Counted from the first letter of the stretch, positions 4,580 to 14,668 are shown. The stretch is 64,000 nt of DNA from Escherichia coli (GCF_045037415.1 NZ_CP173438.1); one strand, 5' to 3'. Numbers and translations: made by a program. Notes: generated by a model from the letters alone, not told the origin.

Positions 4580-4852
4580 ATGAATCTTGATGACATTATC
4601 AACAGCATGACGCCTGAGGTATACCAGCGTTTGTCGACCGCCGTTGAACTGGGGAAATGGCCTGATGGCGTTACGTTGACCGAGGAACAAAAAGAGAACT
4701 GCCTGCAACTGGTGATGCTGTGGCAAGCCCGCCATAATACCGAAGCACAGCATATGACAATTGACACAAATGGTCAGATGGTCATGAAGAGCAAACAGCA
4801 GTTAAAAGAAGATTTTGGTATCTCAGCAAAGCCTATTGCCATGTTTAAGTAA
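4580..4852 (+). CDS. yeaC: DUF1315-family protein YeaC
   Basis: 90 aa MNLDDIINSMTPEVYQRL...; immediately downstream of msrB. Confidence 0.8.
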   Translation: MNLDDIINSMTPEVYQRLSTAVELGKWPDGVTLTEEQKENCLQLVMLWQARHNTEAQHMTIDTNGQMVMKSKQQLKEDFGISAKPIAMFK

Positions 4853-5111
4853 GTGGTTTATCCCCTTTTTGCCGCGGTTATAAAGGGGATAGCCAACAAT
4901 GACCCCACGACTCATCTCAATTATCTCGCCCCGACCTGGCTAAGTCCCAGTCCGATCTCTTGCAGTCGCGTTCACACCTGAATGACTTCTCCTGAACTTA
5001 AGTCTCAGGCCTATTTGGCCGGGAATCCCTCTCGAATTTGCTCTTTTTGCGTCCCGCCTTCCATCAACCTGTAACAACCCCAGCCATTTTCTGCGTAATT
5101 GTGATCTAAGT

Positions 5112-5143
5112 TGTAAAACGCAGATCATTATCTGTGTTTTACA
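5112..5143 (+). promoter_or_regulatory. 13-bp-arm palindrome about 80 bp upstream of ydjL (candidate operator or RNA hairpin)
   Basis: TGTAAAACGCAGA-tcatta-TCTGTGTTTTACA, one mismatch, followed by TTGACC -35-like hexamer. Confidence 0.35.
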
Positions 5144-5221
5144 GATTTAATGTTGACCTCAAAAATCATGTGGGTAAGTATGATGACCATCTAAGCAAAA
5201 CAAAACACAGAGGATGACGCA

Positions 5222-6298
5222 ATGAAAGCACTGGCTCGGTTTGGCAAGGCTTTTGGTGGCTACAAGATGATTGATGTCCCACAACCCATTTGTGGCCCGG
5301 AAGATGTCGTGATTGAAATTAAAGCCGCGGCAATCTGCGGCGCAGACATGAAGCACTACAATGTCGATAGCGGTTCGGATGAGTTTAACTCTATCCGCGG
5401 CCATGAGTTCGCAGGTTGTATTGCGCAGGTTGGTGAAAAAGTCAAAGACTGGAAAGTGGGGCAACGCGTCGTGTCGGATAACAGCGGTCACGTTTGCGGC
5501 GTTTGCCCGGCCTGTGAACAAGGTGATTTTCTGTGTTGTACAGAAAAAGTAAACCTTGGTCTGGATAACAATACCTGGGGCGGTGGTTTTTCCAAATATT
5601 GTCTTGTTCCTGGTGAAATTCTCAAAATTCATCGTCATGCGTTGTGGGAAATCCCTGATGGTGTTGATTATGAGGACGCAGCCGTACTTGACCCTATCTG
5701 TAATGCCTATAAATCCATCGCGCAGCAATCGAAATTCCTTCCAGGTCAGGATGTGGTCGTCATCGGCACTGGCCCACTCGGGCTGTTCTCCGTACAAATG
5801 GCGCGGATTATGGGGGCGGTAAATATCGTCGTCGTTGGTCTGCAAGAAGATGTAACGGTCCGCTTCCCGGTTGCAAAAGAACTGGGTGCGACGGCAGTAG
5901 TAAATGGTTCTACCGAAGATGTGGTGGCACGCTGCCAGCAAATTTGTGGCAAAGACAATCTGGGGCTGGTGATTGAATGCTCCGGTGCCAATATCGCATT
6001 GAAACAAGCCATCGAAATGCTCCGCCCGAATGGGGAAGTAGTACGCGTTGGAATGGGCTTCAAACCTCTTGATTTCTCGATTAATGACATTACCGCCTGG
6101 AACAAAAGCATCATTGGGCATATGGCCTATGACTCCACTTCATGGCGTAACGCTATCAGGCTATTAGCCAGCGGCGCTATCAAAGTCAAACCGATGATCA
6201 CGCATCGTATCGGCCTGTCGCAATGGCGCGAAGGGTTTGATGCGATGGTCGATAAAACTGCAATCAAAGTGATCATGACTTACGACTTTGATGAATAA
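5222..6298 (+). CDS. ydjL: Zn-dependent alcohol/sugar dehydrogenase YdjL
   Basis: 358 aa MDR-family with GHE..G and Cys-rich zinc motifs. Confidence 0.85.
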   Translation: MKALARFGKAFGGYKMIDVPQPICGPEDVVIEIKAAAICGADMKHYNVDSGSDEFNSIRGHEFAGCIAQVGEKVKDWKVGQRVVSDNSGHVCGVCPACEQGDFLCCTEKVNLGLDNNTWGGGFSKYCLVPGEILKIHRHALWEIPDGVDYEDAAVLDPICNAYKSIAQQSKFLPGQDVVVIGTGPLGLFSVQMARIMGAVNIVVVGLQEDVTVRFPVAKELGATAVVNGSTEDVVARCQQICGKDNLGLVIECSGANIALKQAIEMLRPNGEVVRVGMGFKPLDFSINDITAWNKSIIGHMAYDSTSWRNAIRLLASGAIKVKPMITHRIGLSQWREGFDAMVDKTAIKVIMTYDFDE

Positions 6299-6324
6299 CT
6301 ACTCTCCTGAAGGAACGTTATCGC

Positions 6325-7704
6325 ATGGAACAGATAACAAAACCGCATTGTGGTGCACGGCTGGATCGCTTACCGGATTGCCGCTGGCATTCGTCGATGT
6401 TTGCCATCGTCGCGTTTGGCCTGCTTGTCTGCTGGAGTAATGCCGTTGGTGGCTTGATCCTCGCGCAGCTGAAAGCGTTGGGCTGGACAGATAATTCCAC
6501 CACTGCCACATTCTCAGCAATCACGACCGCCGGAATGTTTCTCGGTGCGCTGGTGGGCGGCATCATCGGTGACAAAACCGGTCGCAGAAATGCGTTTATC
6601 CTCTATGAGGCCATTCATATTGCCTCGATGGTTGTCGGTGCTTTCTCACCGAATATGGATTTCCTTATTGCCTGCCGTTTTGTGATGGGCGTTGGGCTGG
6701 GAGCTTTACTGGTTACACTGTTTGCTGGTTTCACCGAATATATGCCCGGAAGAAATCGCGGAACGTGGTCCAGTCGGGTTTCCTTTATTGGTAACTGGTC
6801 ATATCCGCTCTGTTCATTGATTGCGATGGGACTCACGCCGCTGATTAGTGCAGAGTGGAACTGGCGGGTACAACTGCTTATCCCTGCAATATTGTCACTT
6901 ATCGCTACGGCGCTGGCCTGGCGCTACTTTCCTGAATCCCCGCGCTGGCTGGAATCGCGCGGACGTTATCAGGAAGCCGAGAAAGTCATGCGGAGTATAG
7001 AAGAAGGCGTCATACGCCAGACGGGTAAACCTTTGCCGCCTGTGGTTATTGCTGATGACGGTAAAGCACCACAAGCGGTGCCGTATTCAGCCTTACTGAC
7101 AGGAGTATTACTGAAACGCGTGATATTAGGCTCTTGTGTGCTGATTGCCATGAACGTTGTGCAGTACACACTAATTAACTGGTTGCCAACGATATTCATG
7201 ACCCAGGGAATTAATTTAAAAGACTCGATTGTTTTAAATACCATGAGTATGTTTGGCGCGCCATTTGGTATTTTTATTGCCATGCTGGTGATGGATAAAA
7301 TTCCGCGTAAAACAATGGGTGTGGGGCTATTAATCCTGATTGCGGTGCTCGGATATATCTATTCACTGCAAACCAGTATGTTGCTCATAACGCTGATTGG
7401 TTTCTTCCTGATTACTTTCGTCTATATGTACGTTTGCTATGCCTCGGCAGTGTATGTCCCTGAGATCTGGCCGACAGAGGCCAAACTCCGTGGCTCCGGT
7501 CTGGCGAATGCGGTAGGGCGAATCAGTGGTATTGCCGCACCTTATGCCGTTGCAGTGCTGCTCAGTAGTTATGGCGTAACGGGAGTCTTTATTCTTCTGG
7601 GGGCTGTTTCAATTATTGTCGCAATTGCTATCGCCACCATTGGAATTGAAACCAAAGGTGTCTCCGTTGAAAGTTTAAGTATTGATGCAGTAGCCAATAA
7701 ATAA
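6325..7704 (+). CDS. ydjK: MFS sugar transporter YdjK
   Basis: 459 aa, about 12 TM segments, MFS signature GxxxDxxGRR. Confidence 0.85.
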   Translation: MEQITKPHCGARLDRLPDCRWHSSMFAIVAFGLLVCWSNAVGGLILAQLKALGWTDNSTTATFSAITTAGMFLGALVGGIIGDKTGRRNAFILYEAIHIASMVVGAFSPNMDFLIACRFVMGVGLGALLVTLFAGFTEYMPGRNRGTWSSRVSFIGNWSYPLCSLIAMGLTPLISAEWNWRVQLLIPAILSLIATALAWRYFPESPRWLESRGRYQEAEKVMRSIEEGVIRQTGKPLPPVVIADDGKAPQAVPYSALLTGVLLKRVILGSCVLIAMNVVQYTLINWLPTIFMTQGINLKDSIVLNTMSMFGAPFGIFIAMLVMDKIPRKTMGVGLLILIAVLGYIYSLQTSMLLITLIGFFLITFVYMYVCYASAVYVPEIWPTEAKLRGSGLANAVGRISGIAAPYAVAVLLSSYGVTGVFILLGAVSIIVAIAIATIGIETKGVSVESLSIDAVANK

Positions 7705-7720
7705 TACTGGTGGATTCAAA

Positions 7721-8764
7721 ATGAAAAATTCAAAAGCAATGTTGCAGGTGCCGGGCACAATGAAAATTATTTCAGCAGAAATACCTGTACCTAAAGAAGA
7801 TGAAGTTTTGATTAAAGTGGAATATGTCGGTATTTGTGGTTCAGATGTACATGGTTTTGAATCAGGCCCGTTTATTCCTCCTAAAGACCCAAATCAAGAA
7901 ATTGGCCTGGGTCATGAATGCGCCGGGACGGTTGTGGCTGTGGGAAGCCGCGTGCGCAAATTTAAACCGGGGGATCGGGTAAATATCGAACCTGGCGTTC
8001 CTTGCGGTCACTGTCGTTACTGTCTGGAAGGCAAATATAACATCTGCCCGGACGTTGATTTTATGGCGACACAACCCAACTACCGCGGCGCATTAACGCA
8101 CTATCTGTGTCATCCGGAGAGCTTTACTTACAAACTGCCAGACAATATGGACACGATGGAAGGGGCGCTGGTGGAGCCTGCCGCAGTCGGGATGCATGCC
8201 GCGATGCTGGCAGATGTTAAACCGGGTAAGAAGATAATTATTCTGGGAGCGGGTTGTATTGGTTTGATGACGTTGCAAGCGTGCAAATGCCTGGGAGCAA
8301 CGGAAATTGCCGTCGTTGATGTGCTGGAAAAACGTCTGACAATGGCGGAACAGCTCGGCGCGACAGTGGTTATTAACGGCGCAAAAGAAGACACTATTGC
8401 ACGCTGTCAGCAATTTACCGAAGACATGGGCGCAGATATTGTTTTTGAAACAGCGGGTTCTGCGGTCACCGTTAAACAGGCACCTTATCTGGTCATGCGC
8501 GGCGGTAAAATTATGATTGTTGGTACTGTACCCGGCGATTCGGCAATCAATTTCCTCAAAATCAATCGCGAAGTCACTATCCAGACGGTATTCCGCTATG
8601 CCAATCGTTATCCGGTCACGATTGAAGCTATTTCTTCAGGGCGATTCGATGTGAAATCGATGGTGACGCATATTTACGATTATCGGGATGTACAACAGGC
8701 ATTTGAAGAGTCAGTTAACAACAAACGCGACATTATTAAAGGCGTTATTAAAATTAGCGATTAA
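7721..8764 (+). CDS. ydjJ: Zn-dependent sugar dehydrogenase YdjJ
   Basis: 347 aa MDR-family, GICGSD..GHE motif. Confidence 0.85.
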   Translation: MKNSKAMLQVPGTMKIISAEIPVPKEDEVLIKVEYVGICGSDVHGFESGPFIPPKDPNQEIGLGHECAGTVVAVGSRVRKFKPGDRVNIEPGVPCGHCRYCLEGKYNICPDVDFMATQPNYRGALTHYLCHPESFTYKLPDNMDTMEGALVEPAAVGMHAAMLADVKPGKKIIILGAGCIGLMTLQACKCLGATEIAVVDVLEKRLTMAEQLGATVVINGAKEDTIARCQQFTEDMGADIVFETAGSAVTVKQAPYLVMRGGKIMIVGTVPGDSAINFLKINREVTIQTVFRYANRYPVTIEAISSGRFDVKSMVTHIYDYRDVQQAFEESVNNKRDIIKGVIKISD

Positions 8765-8784
8765 TTAATACGGGAGAACAGAAC

Positions 8785-9621
8785 ATGCTCGCAGATATCA
8801 GATATTGGGAAAACGATGCCACAAATAAACATTATGCAATTGCCCATTTTAACGTATGGAATGCAGAAATGTTGATGGGCGTTATCGACGCAGCCGAAGA
8901 AGCGAAATCACCGGTTATTATTTCTTTTGGCACAGGTTTTGTCGGCAACACCTCATTTGAAGATTTCTCTCACATGATGGTATCAATGGCACAAAAAGCA
9001 ACGGTGCCGGTAATAACTCATTGGGATCATGGTCGGAGTATGGAGATTATTCATAACGCCTGGACTCATGGTATGAATTCATTAATGCGTGATGCTTCTG
9101 CATTTGATTTCGAAGAAAATATTCGTTTAACCAAAGAGGCTGTTGATTTCTTCCATCCGCTGGGTATTCCGGTAGAGGCGGAATTAGGGCATGTCGGTAA
9201 TGAAACCGTTTATGAGGAAGCGCTGGCAGGCTATCACTATACCGATCCTGACCAGGCGGCTGAATTTGTTGAACGTACGGGCTGTGACTCATTGGCTGTC
9301 GCCATCGGCAACCAGCATGGGGTTTATACGTCAGAGCCACAATTGAACTTTGAGGTCGTCAAACGCGTACGCGATGCTGTTTCTGTTCCGCTGGTTTTGC
9401 ATGGCGCATCAGGGATCAGTGATGCCGACATTAAAACTGCAATTTCGTTGGGTATTGCGAAAATCAACATTCATACGGAGCTCTGTCAGGCCGCAATGGT
9501 AGCAGTGAAAGAAAACCAGGATCAGCCTTTCCTGCATTTAGAACGTGAAGTGCGTAAAGCTATAAAAGAACGGGCATTGGATAAAATTAAACTGTTCGGT
9601 TCTGATGGCAAAGCGGAATAA
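8785..9621 (+). CDS. ydjI: class II aldolase YdjI
   Basis: 278 aa, FbaA/GatY-like class II aldolase sequence. Confidence 0.85.
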   Translation: MLADIRYWENDATNKHYAIAHFNVWNAEMLMGVIDAAEEAKSPVIISFGTGFVGNTSFEDFSHMMVSMAQKATVPVITHWDHGRSMEIIHNAWTHGMNSLMRDASAFDFEENIRLTKEAVDFFHPLGIPVEAELGHVGNETVYEEALAGYHYTDPDQAAEFVERTGCDSLAVAIGNQHGVYTSEPQLNFEVVKRVRDAVSVPLVLHGASGISDADIKTAISLGIAKINIHTELCQAAMVAVKENQDQPFLHLEREVRKAIKERALDKIKLFGSDGKAE

Positions 9622-9625
9622 TAAT

Positions 9626-10573
9626 ATGGATAATCTCGACGTTATTTGTATAGGTGCCGCTATTGTTGATATTCCATTGCAACCGGTCAGTAAAAATATC
9701 TTTGATGTGGATTCTTATCCTCTTGAAAGAATCGCAATGACCACCGGGGGTGATGCAATAAATGAAGCAACAATTATTTCTCGTCTGGGCCATCGCACAG
9801 CATTAATGAGTCGTATTGGTAAAGATGCCGCAGGGCAATTTATTCTCGACCATTGCCGCAAAGAGAATATTGATATTCAAAGCCTGAAGCAGGACGTCAG
9901 CATAGATACCTCTATTAACGTTGGACTGGTGACGGAGGATGGCGAGCGGACCTTTGTCACAAACCGTAACGGCAGTCTGTGGAAATTGAATATTGACGAT
10001 GTTGATTTTGCGCGGTTTTCTCAGGCGAAATTATTATCACTGGCCAGTATTTTCAACAGTCCTCTATTGGATGGTCGAGCGCTAACAGAAATTTTTACGC
10101 AAGCTAAAACCCGGCAGATGATTATCTGTGCCGATATGATCAAACCGCGGTTGAATGAAACGCTGAATGATATTTGCGAAGCATTGAGTTATGTCGATTA
10201 TCTGTTTCCTAATTTTGCCGAGGCAAAATTACTCACCGGGAAAGAGACACTGGATGAAATTGCTGACTGCTTTCTTGCGTGCGGCGTAAAAACGGTGGTG
10301 ATTAAAACGGGTAAAGACGGCTGCTTTATCAAGCGTGGTGACATGACGATGAAGGTGCCGGCGGTCGCAGGAATAACCGCTATCGACACCATTGGTGCGG
10401 GCGATAACTTTGCTTCAGGTTTTATTGCAGCACTGTTAGAAGGCAAAAATCTGCGAGAATGCGCACGCTTTGCCAATGCAACGGCGGCTATCTCGGTTCT
10501 AAGCATCGGCGCCACCACCGGTGTAAAAAACAGAAAGCTGGTCGAACAATTGCTGGAAGAATACGAAGGATAA
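9626..10573 (+). CDS. ydjH: PfkB-family sugar kinase YdjH
   Basis: 315 aa from MDNLDV; ribokinase-like GAGD motif; track ORF start 9605 is an extension. Confidence 0.85.
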   Translation: MDNLDVICIGAAIVDIPLQPVSKNIFDVDSYPLERIAMTTGGDAINEATIISRLGHRTALMSRIGKDAAGQFILDHCRKENIDIQSLKQDVSIDTSINVGLVTEDGERTFVTNRNGSLWKLNIDDVDFARFSQAKLLSLASIFNSPLLDGRALTEIFTQAKTRQMIICADMIKPRLNETLNDICEALSYVDYLFPNFAEAKLLTGKETLDEIADCFLACGVKTVVIKTGKDGCFIKRGDMTMKVPAVAGITAIDTIGAGDNFASGFIAALLEGKNLRECARFANATAAISVLSIGATTGVKNRKLVEQLLEEYEG

Positions 10574-10582
10574 TGAAGGCAA

Positions 10583-11563
10583 ATGAAAAAGATACCTTTA
10601 GGCACAGCGGATATAACGCTTTCGCGAATGGGGTTGGGTACATGGGCTATTGGCGGCGGTCCTGCATGGAATGGCGATCTCGATCGACAAATATGCATTG
10701 ATACGATTCTTGAAGCCCATCGTTGCGGCATTAACCTGATTGATACTGCGCCAGGATATAACTTTGGCAATAGTGAAGTTATCGTTGGTCAGGCGTTAAA
10801 AAAACTGCCCCGTGAACAGGTTGTAGTAGAAACCAAATGCGGCATTGTCTGGGAACGAAAAGGAAGTTTATTCAACAAAGTTGGCGATCGGCAGTTGTAT
10901 AAAAACCTTTCTCCGGAATCTATCCGCGAAGAGGTAGAAGCCAGCTTGCAACGTCTGGGTATTGATTACATCGATATCTACATGACGCACTGGCAGTCGG
11001 TGCCGCCATTTTTTACGCCGATAGCTGAAACTGTTGCAGTGCTTAATGCGTTAAAGGCCGAAGGGAAAATTCGCGCTATAGGCGCTGCTAACGTCGATGC
11101 TGACCATATCCGCGAGTATCTGCAACATGGTGAACTGGATATTATTCAGGCGAAATACAGTATTCTCGACCGGGCGATGGAAAACGAACTGCTGCCGCTA
11201 TGTCGTGATAATGGCATTGTGGTTCAGGTTTATTCCCCGCTAGAGCAGGGATTGTTGACCGGCACCATCACGCGTGATTACGTTCCGGGCGGCGCTCGGG
11301 CAAATAAAGTCTGGTTCCAGCGTGAAAACATGCTGAAAGTGATTGATATGCTTGAACAGTGGCAGCCACTCTGTGCTCGTTATCAGTGCACAATTCCCAC
11401 TCTGGCACTGGCGTGGATATTAAAACAGAGTGATTTAATCTCCATTCTTAGTGGGGCTACTGCGCCGGAACAGGTACGTGAAAATGTCGCGGCACTGAAT
11501 ATCAACTTATCGGATGCAGACGCAACATTGATGAGGGAAATGGCAGAGGCCCTGGAGCGTTAA
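10583..11563 (+). CDS. ydjG: aldo-keto reductase YdjG
   Basis: 326 aa AKR-family sequence. Confidence 0.85.
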   Translation: MKKIPLGTADITLSRMGLGTWAIGGGPAWNGDLDRQICIDTILEAHRCGINLIDTAPGYNFGNSEVIVGQALKKLPREQVVVETKCGIVWERKGSLFNKVGDRQLYKNLSPESIREEVEASLQRLGIDYIDIYMTHWQSVPPFFTPIAETVAVLNALKAEGKIRAIGAANVDADHIREYLQHGELDIIQAKYSILDRAMENELLPLCRDNGIVVQVYSPLEQGLLTGTITRDYVPGGARANKVWFQRENMLKVIDMLEQWQPLCARYQCTIPTLALAWILKQSDLISILSGATAPEQVRENVAALNINLSDADATLMREMAEALER

Positions 11564-11589
11564 ATACTCAACACGATTCACCTCTGTTT

Positions 11590-11617
11590 CTGTGAAAACT
11601 GTGATGAAAATCTGTGA
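11590..11617 (+). promoter_or_regulatory. three direct CTGTGA repeats upstream of ydjF (candidate regulator binding sites)
   Basis: cTGTGAaaa / cTGTGAtga / cTGTGAttc spaced 9 and 13 bp, about 85-110 bp upstream of ydjF start. Confidence 0.3.
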
Positions 11618-11699
11618 TTCAAACAGGTTATTTTGAAAGTAAACATCGGTTATGCGATAATTGCGCTAATGTGATGTAAAAAGATACAGGGGTGTAATC

Positions 11700-12458
11700 G
11701 TGGCGGCAAAAGACAGGATTCAGGCAATTAAGCAAATGGTTGCCAACGATAAAAAGGTGACAGTCTCAAATTTGAGTGGGATTTTTCAGGTAACCGAAGA
11801 AACCATTCGCCGCGATCTTGAGAAGTTGGAAGATGAAGGCTTTTTGACCAGAACCTATGGTGGTGCTGTTTTAAATACAGCGATGTTGACGGAGAATATC
11901 CATTTTTATAAGCGCGCTTCATCGTTTTATGAAGAGAAGCAGCTTATTGCACGCAAGGCACTACCCTTTGTCGACAATAAAACCACCATGGCAGCCGATT
12001 CCAGTAGTACCGTAATGGAATTGCTCAAATTGTTACAGGACCGTAGTGACCTGACGTTGCTAACCAACTCGGCGGAAGCGATTCATGTTCTGGCTCAGTC
12101 AGAAATTAAAGTCGTTTCAACGGGTGGGGAACTAAACAAAAATACACTTTCACTGCAAGGAAGAATTACTAAAGAGATCATCAGCCGCTACCATGTCGAT
12201 ATCATGGTAATGAGTTGTAAAGGTCTTGATATTAACAGCGGCGCGCTGGACTCTAATGAAGCGGAAGCTGAAATCAAAAAGACAATGATCCGTCAGGCGA
12301 CAGAAGTTGCGTTATTGGTTGATCACTCTAAGTTTGATCGCAAAGCTTTTGTCCAGTTAGCTGACTTTAGTCATATTAATTACATAATAACTGATAAATC
12401 ACCGGGTGCAGAGTGGATAGCATTTTGCAAAGACAATAATATCCAGCTGGTGTGGTAA
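11700..12458 (+). CDS. ydjF: DeoR-family transcriptional regulator YdjF (GTG start)
   Basis: 252 aa, N-terminal HTH and DeoR C-terminal sugar-binding domain. Confidence 0.85.
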   Translation: MAAKDRIQAIKQMVANDKKVTVSNLSGIFQVTEETIRRDLEKLEDEGFLTRTYGGAVLNTAMLTENIHFYKRASSFYEEKQLIARKALPFVDNKTTMAADSSSTVMELLKLLQDRSDLTLLTNSAEAIHVLAQSEIKVVSTGGELNKNTLSLQGRITKEIISRYHVDIMVMSCKGLDINSGALDSNEAEAEIKKTMIRQATEVALLVDHSKFDRKAFVQLADFSHINYIITDKSPGAEWIAFCKDNNIQLVW

Positions 12459-12575
12459 TTTAAGCACACATTGTCAATATTATTTGTTCCTGCGCCTGGA
12501 AATAAAATGATGATAAAGATGCGGCAAGTGAATTTGCCGCAATTGCTACCTTTTTTAGCAAATCCGAGGCACCCA

Positions 12576-13934
12576 ATGGAACAATATGATCAAATTGGCG
12601 CAAGACTGGACCGCTTGCCTTTGGCCCGGTTTCATTATCGTATATTTGGTATAATAAGCTTTAGTCTGTTATTAACGGGGTTTTTGAGTTACTCCGGTAA
12701 TGTCGTCTTAGCAAAGCTGGTAAGCAATGGATGGTCAAATAATTTCCTCAATGCCGCCTTTACCTCGGCATTAATGTTTGGTTATTTCATCGGCTCTCTT
12801 ACCGGTGGGTTTATTGGTGACTACTTTGGGCGGCGCAGGGCGTTTCGCATAAATCTTCTCATCGTCGGTATTGCGGCAACAGGGGCCGCTTTTGTCCCTG
12901 ATATGTACTGGCTCATCTTCTTTCGCTTCCTGATGGGAACAGGAATGGGGGCGCTGATTATGGTTGGCTATGCCTCATTTACGGAGTTTATCCCCGCGAC
13001 GGTGCGTGGAAAATGGTCCGCGCGGCTCTCATTTGTTGGAAACTGGTCGCCCATGCTGTCTGCGGCGATAGGCGTGGTGGTTATCGCTTTTTTTAGTTGG
13101 CGGATAATGTTTCTGCTGGGCGGTATTGGCATACTGTTAGCCTGGTTTCTCTCAGGTAAATACTTTATTGAGTCGCCACGATGGTTGGCAGGGAAAGGGC
13201 GAATCGCAGGTGCAGAAAGCCAACTTCGTGAAGTAGAGCAGCAAATTGAAAGAGAGAAGAGTATTCGTTTACCCCCGCTTACTTTGAACCAGAGCAACAG
13301 CAAGGTTAAGGTAATCAAGGGTACCTTCTGGCTCCTGTTTAAAGGGGAAATGTTACGACGTACATTAGTCGCGATTACTGTTTTAATTGCAATGAACATT
13401 TCGCTTTATACCATCACCGTATGGATGCCGACCATATTTGTTAACTCCGGCATTGATGTCGATAAATCAATATTAATGACCGCTGTTATTATGATTGGCG
13501 CTCCGGTAGGGATATTTATTGCGGCATTAATTATTGATCATTTCCCTCGTCGATTATTTGGTTCCGCCTTACTTATTATTATTGCCGTGTTAGGCTATAT
13601 CTATTCAATTCAGACAACAGAGTGGGCGATTTTAATCTATGGCCTGGTGATGATCTTCTTTTTATACATGTATGTTTGCTTCGCGTCGGCGGTTTATATC
13701 CCGGAACTTTGGCCAACGCATTTACGCCTGCGTGGTTCGGGTTTCGTTAATGCCGTAGGACGGATCGTCGCAGTCTTCACGCCCTATGGCGTTGCGGCAT
13801 TATTAACACATTATGGGTCGATCACGGTGTTTATGGTGCTTGGTGTCATGTTAGTGCTCTGTGCGCTGGTTCTCTCCATTTTTGGCATCGAAACGCGGAA
13901 GGTGTCGCTGGAAGAGATTTCTGAGGTGAATTAA
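12576..13934 (+). CDS. ydjE: MFS transporter YdjE
   Basis: 452 aa from MEQYDQIG; paralogous to ydjK; track ORF start 12471 is an extension. Confidence 0.8.
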   Translation: MEQYDQIGARLDRLPLARFHYRIFGIISFSLLLTGFLSYSGNVVLAKLVSNGWSNNFLNAAFTSALMFGYFIGSLTGGFIGDYFGRRRAFRINLLIVGIAATGAAFVPDMYWLIFFRFLMGTGMGALIMVGYASFTEFIPATVRGKWSARLSFVGNWSPMLSAAIGVVVIAFFSWRIMFLLGGIGILLAWFLSGKYFIESPRWLAGKGRIAGAESQLREVEQQIEREKSIRLPPLTLNQSNSKVKVIKGTFWLLFKGEMLRRTLVAITVLIAMNISLYTITVWMPTIFVNSGIDVDKSILMTAVIMIGAPVGIFIAALIIDHFPRRLFGSALLIIIAVLGYIYSIQTTEWAILIYGLVMIFFLYMYVCFASAVYIPELWPTHLRLRGSGFVNAVGRIVAVFTPYGVAALLTHYGSITVFMVLGVMLVLCALVLSIFGIETRKVSLEEISEVN

Positions 13935-13984
13935 ATCTTTCGTTGATGGCGTCAATTACCAGATGTATCACTGATGTGTTTTAT

Positions 13985-14019
13985 CTGGCCTACAATGCCA
14001 GTACAGAATTGTAGGCCAG
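13985..14019. terminator. hairpin between convergent ydjE and pncA
   Basis: CTGGCCTACAAT...ATTGTAGGCCAG 12-bp inverted repeat. Confidence 0.5.
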
Positions 14020-14026
14020 CGTAAAA

Positions 14027-14668
14027 TTACTCCTGCGTTTCTTCCCAGTCTGCCAGCGTATATAGCGTTGCCCCAGCTGCTGACATTTCCATAAACGCGT
14101 GCGCACTGTCCTGTGGCTGGATATTTACGCCACGACAACCATCGGTAATCACGTTCACCTTATAGCCTAACTGTAAAGCGTCCAGCACGGTAAACTTAAC
14201 GCAATAGTCAGTAGCCAGACCCATAACGATCAATTCATTGATTACATGAGCGCGCAACCAGTCATCGAGCGCAGTTTTCTGCCGACGACCGTTATCAAAA
14301 AAGGCACTGTAACTGTCAACTAAAGGATTTTCGCCTTTATGGAACACCGCTGCGATCGCTTTTTGCTTCAGTAACGGATGTAATTGTGCGCCTTCACTGT
14401 TCTGCACACAGTGATCGGGCCAGAAGGTTTGTGGCAAACCGTCGAGTTGGCCTGGCGTATAAGGCTCTACACCGTGCTGACTGGCAAAACTGCCGTGATT
14501 CGCCGGATGCCAGTCCTGACTGGCGATAACTGCTTCACCGCGCGACTGGCACCAGTCAATCAGGCGGTTAGCGACATCCACCGTACTGTCACCTTCCGGC
14601 ACGGCGAGCGCGCCACCAGCACAGAAATCATTTTGTAAATCGACCAGTAACAGGGCGCGAGGGGGCAT
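14027..14668 (-). CDS. pncA: nicotinamidase/pyrazinamidase PncA
   Basis: 213 aa MPPRALLLVDLQNDFC... isochorismatase-fold nicotinamidase. Confidence 0.9.
   Translation of the reverse strand: MPPRALLLVDLQNDFCAGGALAVPEGDSTVDVANRLIDWCQSRGEAVIASQDWHPANHGSFASQHGVEPYTPGQLDGLPQTFWPDHCVQNSEGAQLHPLLKQKAIAAVFHKGENPLVDSYSAFFDNGRRQKTALDDWLRAHVINELIVMGLATDYCVKFTVLDALQLGYKVNVITDGCRGVNIQPQDSAHAFMEMSAAGATLYTLADWEETQE

Follow-up and report, generated by a model that had tools for sequence, protein, structure and literature searches.

In Escherichia coli the ydjL promoter is a validated sensor, inactive in vitro and turned on in the gut of healthy mice, whose regulation has been called uncharacterised (PMC6561318). 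This raises the question of which DNA elements and which proteins control the ydjLKJIHG-ydjF-ydjE carbohydrate cluster that begins at this promoter. The question was addressed in a 64,000-nucleotide stretch of E. coli DNA (NZ_CP173438.1, assembly GCF_045037415.1), hereafter the window, with positions counted from its first nucleotide. An earlier reading made without database searches (the sequence-only reading) had proposed two possible control elements, a near-perfect palindrome upstream of ydjL and three CTGTGA repeats upstream of ydjF, the gene for a regulator of the DeoR/GlpR family. Our analysis indicates, at a probability of roughly 0.65, that the two motifs mark promoter control regions in which tandem YdjF operators lie beside sites for the activator CRP. 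The ydj cluster itself is already known and the mechanism, a DeoR-type local regulator acting with CRP, is conventional; the cis-elements are real, conserved, and undescribed in the searchable literature.

Conservation of the two upstream regions

Scanning genomes with YdjF yielded 22 collinear loci from enterobacteria, at 77-98% protein identity, in the genera Escherichia, Citrobacter, Klebsiella, Raoultella, Yokenella, Budvicia, Intestinirhabdus, Symbiopectobacterium, and Serratia. Upstream of ydjL, similarity among 21 loci from at least eight genera sets in abruptly at about position 5096 (TATTTGTGATCT) and extends to the ATG, and this footprint is kept whether the upstream neighbour is yeaC or a different, divergent gene. 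The mean column identity over 5096-5148 is 91%, compared with 73% at the third codon positions of ydjL, and the consensus reads TATTTGTGATCTGAGTTGTGAAATGCAGATCATTATCTGTGTTTTAAAGATTT..TGTTGACC. Upstream of ydjF, two blocks (11579-11598 and 11608-11646) each reach 93% mean column identity, and the 9-base stretch between them, which includes the middle CTGTGA, is variable (63%). As a comparison for both footprints, the third codon positions of the flanking genes show 65-77% identity. Phylogenetic footprinting of both intergenic regions, which had been suggested as a check on the sequence-only reading, gave sharp footprints in at least eight enterobacterial genera, and both motif regions are under purifying selection.

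A box shared by the two promoters and inherited with ydjF

Protein searches showed that relatives of YdjF form a continuum down to 56% identity, which brought in ten more loci: Agarivorans (L034), Anaerostipes (L035), Caproiciproducens (L036), a member of the Vallitaleaceae (L039), L037, L038, and L040-L043. Common to all ten is the gene order dehydrogenase, transporter, dehydrogenase, aldolase, kinase, reductase, and DeoR regulator; L037 has a proteobacterial-type promoter, and the G+C content of L041-L043 is 30-45%. Remote YdjF-like matches with 27-39% identity (L024-L033) are not orthologous clusters and were excluded.

When hexamers were counted in 14 upstream regions from seven distant taxa, TCTGTG (p = 6e-10) and ATCTGT (p = 1e-7) came out in the lead. 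A box of the form AT(C/A)T(G/T)T starts 23-25 nt upstream of the TTGAC -35 element in the seven taxa, with a second box another 20-21 bp upstream of this proximal one; in Agarivorans, Anaerostipes, Caproiciproducens, and L040 the pair is arranged as direct repeats with a spacing of 20-21 bp. The recurring element is a box of about 15 bp, AAATCTGTG(T/A)TT(C/T)AA, located before both ydjL and ydjF.

Scanning with a dyad consensus at a threshold of at least 9/12 was too permissive (about one match per 1-2 kb), and a matrix built from non-enteric loci was used instead. This 15-bp matrix, with the consensus AAATCTGTGTTTCAA, was seeded with the enriched word and refined only on six non-enteric loci (Agarivorans, L037, and Firmicute-type loci), and both strands of the 64-kb window were scanned with it (127,972 positions). 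The relevant matches are as follows:

11608-11622, plus strand: rank 1, AAATCTGTGATTCAA, 18.1 bits, the proximal box of the ydjF promoter
5128-5142, plus strand: rank 2, TTATCTGTGTTTTAC, 17.4 bits, the right arm of the palindrome
Elsewhere in the window: rank 3, 14.2 bits
11578-11592, plus strand: rank 20, 11.1 bits, the distal block of the ydjF promoter
5113-5127, minus strand: rank 64, 8.5 bits, the left arm of the palindrome

One motif is thus found at the operon promoter and at the promoter of the regulator's own gene, with ranks 1 and 2 at these two places. The sites corresponding to 11608 and 5128 are the two best matches in 9 of the 11 enteric loci scanned, and in the held-out locus L041 the top three matches all lie upstream of ydjF and ydjL. 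The box is co-inherited with ydjF across phyla.

The orientation of the box is flexible. In the ydjF promoters of L041 (9917-9956), L043 (~9915-9950), and L040 (~9919-9955), two convergent boxes form a palindrome of about 40 bp (ATCTGTnnTTCAA...TTGAAnnACAGAT), the reverse of the arrangement at E. coli ydjL.

The ydjL promoter

The palindrome proposed in the sequence-only reading, with 13-bp arms and about 80 bp before ydjL, is present: TGTAAAACGCAGA at 5112-5124 recurs as its reverse complement, with one mismatch, at 5131-5143, and 78 nt separate its right end from the ydjL ATG. The unit that is conserved, however, is the ATCTGTG-type box rather than the palindrome. Inverted repeats with 13-bp arms and at most one mismatch occur at a mean of 0.63 per dinucleotide-shuffled window (at least one in 66 of 200 shuffles), and because such repeats also arise in shuffles, the significance of the palindrome comes from its conservation and not from its symmetry. 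The window has four such loci; the other three are at 2738-2769, 13984-14020, and 49761-49790, and the repeat at 13984, between the convergent genes ydjE and pncA, is probably a bidirectional terminator. Of the two arms, the right one is the strong, universally conserved copy of the box and the left one a weaker, inverted copy. In most genera the sequence of the left arm is TGTGAAATGCAGAT, which makes a poorer palindrome, and its outer part (TGTGAAAT) does not mirror the right arm. The near-perfect palindrome is a feature of Escherichia; what had been described as a palindrome is a mirror-image pair of boxes, O2 and O1, with 21 bp between their centres. The elements in this region are:

5097-5118: candidate CRP site AATTGTGATCTAAGTTGTAAAA, with the TGTGA left half at 5100-5104 and a poor right half
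5109-5125: distal box O2 (AGTTGT-AAAAC-GCAGAT), containing the left arm 5112-5124
5130-5146: proximal box O1 (ATCTGT-GTTTT-ACAGAT), a perfect 17-bp dyad containing the right arm 5131-5143
5153-5181, plus strand: inferred ydjL promoter, with -35 TTGACC (5153-5158), a 17-nt spacer, and a weak -10 AAGTAT (5176-5181)
5200-5214, minus strand: possible auxiliary box TCCTCTGTGTTTTGT over the DNA of the ydjL ribosome-binding site, 10.1 bits, rank 33

O1 is the sole 12/12 match to ATCTGT-N5-ACAGAT within the 64 kb, its ATCTGT starts 23 nt upstream of the -35 element, and its site is among the top two matrix matches in 9 of the 11 scanned enteric loci. O2 reads TGATCTGCGTTTTAC on the minus strand (5113-5127) and matches the dyad at 9/12 positions. 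The TTGAC of the -35 element is invariant in the aligned enteric loci and homologous to that of the TTGACT/TTGACA-17-TATAAT/TATTAT promoters of the Firmicute loci, while the -10 element and a start near 5188 are predicted from the sequence. The possible auxiliary box pairs with O1 as a perfect 10-bp inverted repeat (5131-5140 / 5202-5211), and its counterparts in other enteric bacteria score 5-13 bits.

Further box-like sequences occur nearby. At 5087-5101, just upstream of the CRP-like site, lies TTTTCTGCGTAATTG (rank 45), which is found in Escherichia only and is outside the conserved footprint. Inside ydjL, dyad-like sequences are seen at 5333-5349 (ATCTGCGGCGCAGACAT), recurring in L035, L037, L038, and L040, and at 5529-5545 (TTCTGTGTTGTACAGAA), identical in Agarivorans and L037; they probably reflect coding constraint (the ICGADM motif), with internal operators as the alternative.

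The ydjF promoter

The three CTGTGA repeats start at 11590, 11599, and 11612 on the plus strand, 110-88 nt upstream of the ydjF GTG, and are all where the sequence-only reading had placed them. Across the window CTGTGA is not enriched (18 observed versus 24.8 expected), and three copies within 30 nt occurred in none of 200 shuffles. Only the first and third copies fall in conserved blocks, however. The first is CTGTGT in most genera, and the middle one is confined, among 23 aligned enterobacterial loci, to the E. coli window sequence, being missing even from E. whittamii and Escherichia sp. E1V33. The region is organised as follows:

11578-11594, plus strand: distal block TCACCTCTGTTTCTGTG, with box-like CTCTGT and TTCTGT and the first CTGTGA
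11600-11615: CRP box TGTGATGAAAATCTGT, the reverse complement of ACAGATTTTCATCACA
11608-11622, plus strand: proximal box AAATCTGTGATTCAA, with the third CTGTGA
11633-11661, plus strand: ydjF promoter TTGAAA-17-GATAAT with an upstream TG, 10/12 matches in a consensus scan, -10 at 11656-11661

In the distal block CCTCTG is invariant in the 23 loci. The proximal box is among the top two matrix matches in all 11 scanned enteric loci, and its ATCTGT starts 23 nt before the -35 element. Genomic SELEX (systematic evolution of ligands by exponential enrichment) lists the hexamers of the ydjF promoter as a constitutive RpoD promoter; the ydjL promoter is missing from that set (PMC3946193).

YdjF as the candidate box-binding protein

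YdjF has an HTH_DeoR domain (PF08220, residues 6-60, E = 3e-17) followed by a DeoRC domain (PF00455, residues 77-233, E = 3.5e-49), the latter matching the C-terminal domain of DeoR (7l6l), which is the only solved homologue. The protein scores far below every NCBIfam equivalog cut-off considered (GlpR, AgaR, SrlR, FucR, DeoR, UlaR, YgbI, and YciT), with for example 152 against a cut-off of 260 for AgaR and 137 against 259 for FucR, and it is a separate DeoR/GlpR subfamily. Residues 32-42 of the helix-turn-helix domain (TEETIRRDLEK) are invariant from E. coli to Firmicutes, and in the distant loci YdjF (56-63% identity) is the sole regulator inherited with the cluster. From this co-inheritance we strongly infer that YdjF is the protein that binds the box, and the recurring box is accordingly most likely, as far as sequence comparison can tell, the YdjF operator.

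Input from CRP

CRP is a second, separate input of ydj control that the sequence-only reading omitted. The ydjLKJIHG operon is listed under "Crp activation" among novel, validated operons of the Crp regulon (2021), on the basis of electrophoretic mobility-shift experiments (EMSA) on promoter fragments with CRP and expression in a crp-null strain (PMC8085971). The best candidate for the exact CRP site at the ydjL promoter is TTTGTGATCT (5097-5118). Its TGTGA is invariant in 21 enteric loci and is also present in Agarivorans and L037, and it is absent at that position in the Firmicute-type promoters. The sequence TGTGA-TCTAAG-TTGTA matches the CRP consensus at 7/10 positions in E. coli and at 6/10 in most genera, and its centre (5107.5) lies at about -80.5 from the inferred start.

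Between ydjG and ydjF, a CRP SELEX peak with the box ACAGATTTTCATCACA has been reported (Shimada 2011, Table S4). The left half of this CRP box coincides with the middle CTGTGA and its right half with the core of the proximal YdjF box, and its centre at about -60.5 from the inferred start (near 11668) corresponds to a class I position. Conservation of the left half does not extend past the E. coli window sequence.

Proposed control and alternative explanations

The footprints, and the shared box that tracks ydjF across phyla, bear out the suggestion that the motifs are control elements, although the unit had to be redefined and the CRP part corrected. At the ydjL promoter, O1 and O2 would lie at about -50 and -70 from the inferred start, one or two helical turns apart, between the CRP site (~-80) and the -35 TTGACC, with O2 reaching into the right half of the CRP-like site. 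When bound to O1 and O2, YdjF oligomers would block CRP and the C-terminal domain of the RNA polymerase alpha subunit, and the box at 5200-5214 may aid repression through a loop with O1, about 72 bp away centre to centre. With its weak -10, the promoter would thereby be silent in culture. YdjF would be freed when a phosphorylated pathway intermediate, made by the YdjH kinase, binds to its DeoRC domain, upon which cyclic AMP (cAMP)-CRP could activate the promoter. At ydjF, where the proximal box has the same 23-nt distance to the -35 element of a strong constitutive promoter and overlaps the CRP box, binding of YdjF would result in autoregulation. Repression by YdjF, the start sites, and the inducer are what we infer in this scheme; that the effector is a phosphorylated sugar is suggested by family precedent and by the adjacent PfkB kinase YdjH. 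The mechanism fits the silent-in-culture, gut-induced behaviour of the ydjL promoter (PMC6561318).

A number of observations speak against parts of this scheme. The genomic SELEX listing has no CRP peak at ydjL, and we found no binding study in the literature that mentions YdjF. The invariance of the helix-turn-helix residues is weak evidence for shared specificity, since TIRRDL is a signature of the whole family. Outside Escherichia the dyad is degenerate in its right half, and the orientation of the boxes changes with taxon, being inverted at the ydjL promoter of E. coli, direct in Agarivorans and Anaerostipes, and convergent at the ydjF promoters of L041 and L043, so that more than one binding unit would be compatible with the data. 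The spacing of the arms differs by ±1 nt in Yokenella and Intestinirhabdus. The held-out loci L042 and L043 have only mid-ranking matches upstream of ydjL, and no strong box was seen in the examined stretch of L039; the start of that operon is probably located upstream of the locus end. The weak box at 5200-5214 may be an auxiliary operator, or may only resemble one through its similarity to a Shine-Dalgarno complement. Finally, at both E. coli promoters the strong box stops 6 nt short of the -35 element, on its upstream side, and does not overlap the core. Because these boxes are clear of the core promoter, simple steric repression is weakened as an explanation, while the case for operators is unaffected.

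The main rival, which we consider improbable, is that YdjF binds the boxes but acts as a FucR-like activator, recruiting RNA polymerase to the ydjL promoter from about -50/-70 in the presence of inducer. Such a role would suit the fixed distance of 23-25 nt between proximal box and -35 in seven taxa, the position of the boxes entirely upstream of the -35, the weak -10 (AAGTAT) inferred for E. coli ydjL, the listing of the ydjF but not the ydjL promoter as constitutive, and the score of YdjF against the FucR model, which about equals those against repressor models. However, the orthologous Firmicute-type promoters are consensus promoters (TTGACA/TTGACT-17-TATAAT/TATTAT) at which an activator should be needless, and CRP already provides activation. 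The box also overlaps the core promoter of ydjF (its -10 or spacer) in L035, L036, and L038 and the -35/-10 spacer of ydjL in L041, as expected of a repressor, and most characterised members of the DeoR/GlpR family are repressors.

The boxes could instead belong to CRP or another global regulator, with the palindrome and the repeats as arrays of CRP half-sites. We regard this as more doubtful still, even though the boxes hold TGTG(A/T), resembling the CRP half-site TGTGA, the SELEX-derived CRP box TGTGATGAAAATCTGT overlaps the proximal ydjF box, and the ydjL promoter is shifted by CRP in EMSA (PMC8085971). No box pairs with TCACA at a spacing of N6, the best CRP-like match at ydjL (7/10) lies upstream of the boxes, and at ydjF the left half of the CRP box (at 11600) is restricted to the E. 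coli window sequence. In the Firmicute loci the box is kept, along with the ATC before TGTG, and a matrix derived from such loci recovers ranks 1 and 2 in E. coli. To our knowledge Firmicutes have no cAMP-CRP system, and because the box is kept there it is not a CRP site. Very improbable, and rejected here since the structure is not conserved though the sequence is, is a role of the palindrome as an RNA hairpin, i.e., as a terminator or attenuator on transcripts from yeaC or from starts upstream of ydjL. A terminator scan does list the palindrome (15 pairs, tail ATTTAATGTT), and the fold of the E. coli RNA has an energy of -18.3 kcal/mol (z -6.6), but the hairpin has just 4 G-C pairs and lacks a clean U run, and the z scores drop to -0.2 in Citrobacter FP75 and -2.65 in K. 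oxytoca. Moreover, the element is retained with ydjL where a different, divergent gene lies upstream, the boxes are direct repeats in other phyla, and yeaC has a hairpin of its own at ~4862-4890. A scan of 4700-14100 against Rfam (E <= 1) gave two chance-level matches, neither in the intergenic regions of interest.

Comparison with known systems

GlpR shares the HTH_DeoR and DeoRC architecture with YdjF, and acts through several operators of about 17-20 bp in tandem, about two helical turns apart, in a glp operon that is activated by CRP and induced by a phosphorylated intermediate; the scheme proposed for ydj has these features in common with it, a phosphorylated inducer being expected there too. 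YdjF is not a GlpR equivalog, however (126-171 bits against cut-offs of 300-331), the ydj box (ATCTGTG...) is unrelated to the GlpR consensus, and the strong ydj boxes are placed upstream of the -35 element, not over the core promoter. DeoR, with its deo operators O1, O2, and OE, belongs to the same family and likewise has a palindromic operator, a 16-bp palindrome that differs in sequence from the ydj box. The multiple, dispersed deo operators and their looping provide a precedent for a loop between O1 and the box at the ydjL ribosome-binding site, although the ydj loop is only conjectural and involves a weak third box. A parallel to the proposed geometry at ydjL is CytR with CRP at deoP2 and cdd, where a specific repressor sits beside or between CRP sites and neutralises activation instead of occluding the -10. 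Anti-activation of the CytR type matches the inferred ydjL geometry, in which O2 and the right half of the CRP-like site overlap, but CytR is a LacI-family protein and depends on direct contacts with CRP.

Among the orphan carbohydrate pathways of E. coli, the ydj cluster is one of the better known, and the elements described here offer a direct handle on this gut-induced pathway. With a defined operator-regulator pair, the natural inducer, and through it the substrate, could be sought by screening for derepression of a ydjL promoter reporter or for release of YdjF from the box in vitro. The same cluster and box in Anaerostipes and Caproiciproducens point to a nutrient common to gut bacteria.

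A possible fold-back helix at ydjF

An invariant sequence, CACCTCTGTTTC, precedes the ydjF promoter and is the reverse complement of the region of the ydjF ribosome-binding site. The two arms are:

11572-11591, plus strand: 5' arm of the helix, upstream of the start of the ydjF promoter transcript, pairing with 11682-11702
11682-11702, plus strand: 3' arm of the helix, with the ydjF Shine-Dalgarno sequence and GUG start

The long-range helix has a minimum free energy of -42.9 kcal/mol (z -3.7), and none of 200 shuffles was as stable. The predicted probability that the Shine-Dalgarno and start region is unpaired is 0.07 in the read-through RNA compared with 0.37 in RNA from the ydjF promoter. 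The helix core is conserved in enteric bacteria, Agarivorans, and L037. Over its 13 bp in 12 taxa, 91.7% of cells are paired, versus 47-58% with a slid partner; four pairs show double changes, with most pairs barely varying and the sequences being related, and several G-U pairs form on the sense strand only. Tentatively, the block CACCUCUGUUUC, extended to 11572-11591 in E. coli, might fold the read-through ydjLKJIHG mRNA shut at ydjF, transcripts from the ydjF promoter staying translatable. Alternatively, the inverted repeat may represent two DNA operators flanking the ydjF promoter. If the fold-back is real, it would keep the dosage of the repressor independent of induction. In IS10, fold-back inhibition likewise employs an anti-Shine-Dalgarno 5' arm upstream of the gene's own promoter, such that only read-through transcripts are shut; ydjF differs in being a repressor gene downstream of its own operon rather than a transposase gene, and the ydj effect is only predicted.

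Equally speculative, and on balance rather doubtful, is a broader proposal: that in gammaproteobacteria the fold-back insulates ydjF translation against read-through from the operon and, additionally, that the promoter-operator cassette was transferred as a whole between Firmicutes and Proteobacteria, its geometry being preserved.

The gene cluster and minor observations

Eight co-directional genes make up the cluster, as the sequence-only reading had it; the gene classes it named were also right, each being confirmed by Pfam. The RefSeq annotation, transferred to window coordinates, gives:

5222-6298, plus strand: ydjL, Zn-dehydrogenase
6325-7704, plus strand: ydjK, MFS transporter
7721-8764, plus strand: ydjJ, Zn-dehydrogenase
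8785-9621, plus strand: ydjI, class II aldolase
9626-10573, plus strand: ydjH, PfkB kinase
10583-11563, plus strand: ydjG, aldo-keto reductase
11700-12458, plus strand: ydjF, DeoR/GlpR-family regulator, GTG start
12576-13934, plus strand: ydjE, second MFS transporter

The cluster is flanked by yeaC, which ends at 4852, and by pncA, which follows ydjE on the opposite strand (RefSeq). The substrate had been described as poorly defined, which agrees with the literature, where it is still said to be partly defined; the enzymes favour unusual long-chain sugar acids, their natural substrate is not known, and the prevalence of the cluster is low in phylogroup B1 (PMC9602453). Possible clues to the substrate are found in the distant loci. 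Six of them have an extra gene resembling ribulose-phosphate 3-epimerase (L035 3773-4453, L036 3420-4100, L038 3841-4536, L040 3965-4603, L041 3918-4610, and L043 9170-9856), and in Firmicute-type clusters ydjE is replaced by an SDF-family (sodium:dicarboxylate symporter) transporter or a branched-chain-type ABC transporter.

The region 4800-14100 is matched in 5425 of 5426 complete E. coli genomes, several of them at 100% identity. At least 80% of it is present in one place in only 4260 of the 5425 matching genomes; the cluster is variably present, and in some genomes the region has insertion sequences, e.g., ISVsa5 in NZ_CM142772.1.

A third regulated promoter, before ydjE, was considered and rejected: the single matrix match at 12459 is not conserved, and the ydjF-ydjE spacer has a conserved hairpin and a AATGATGATGG block without a conserved box. 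The hairpin, TGCGGCAAGTGAATTTGCCGCA at 12520-12541, combines a variable loop with stem changes in Citrobacter sp. wls619 that look compensatory, and may be a terminator or a processing site between ydjF and ydjE.

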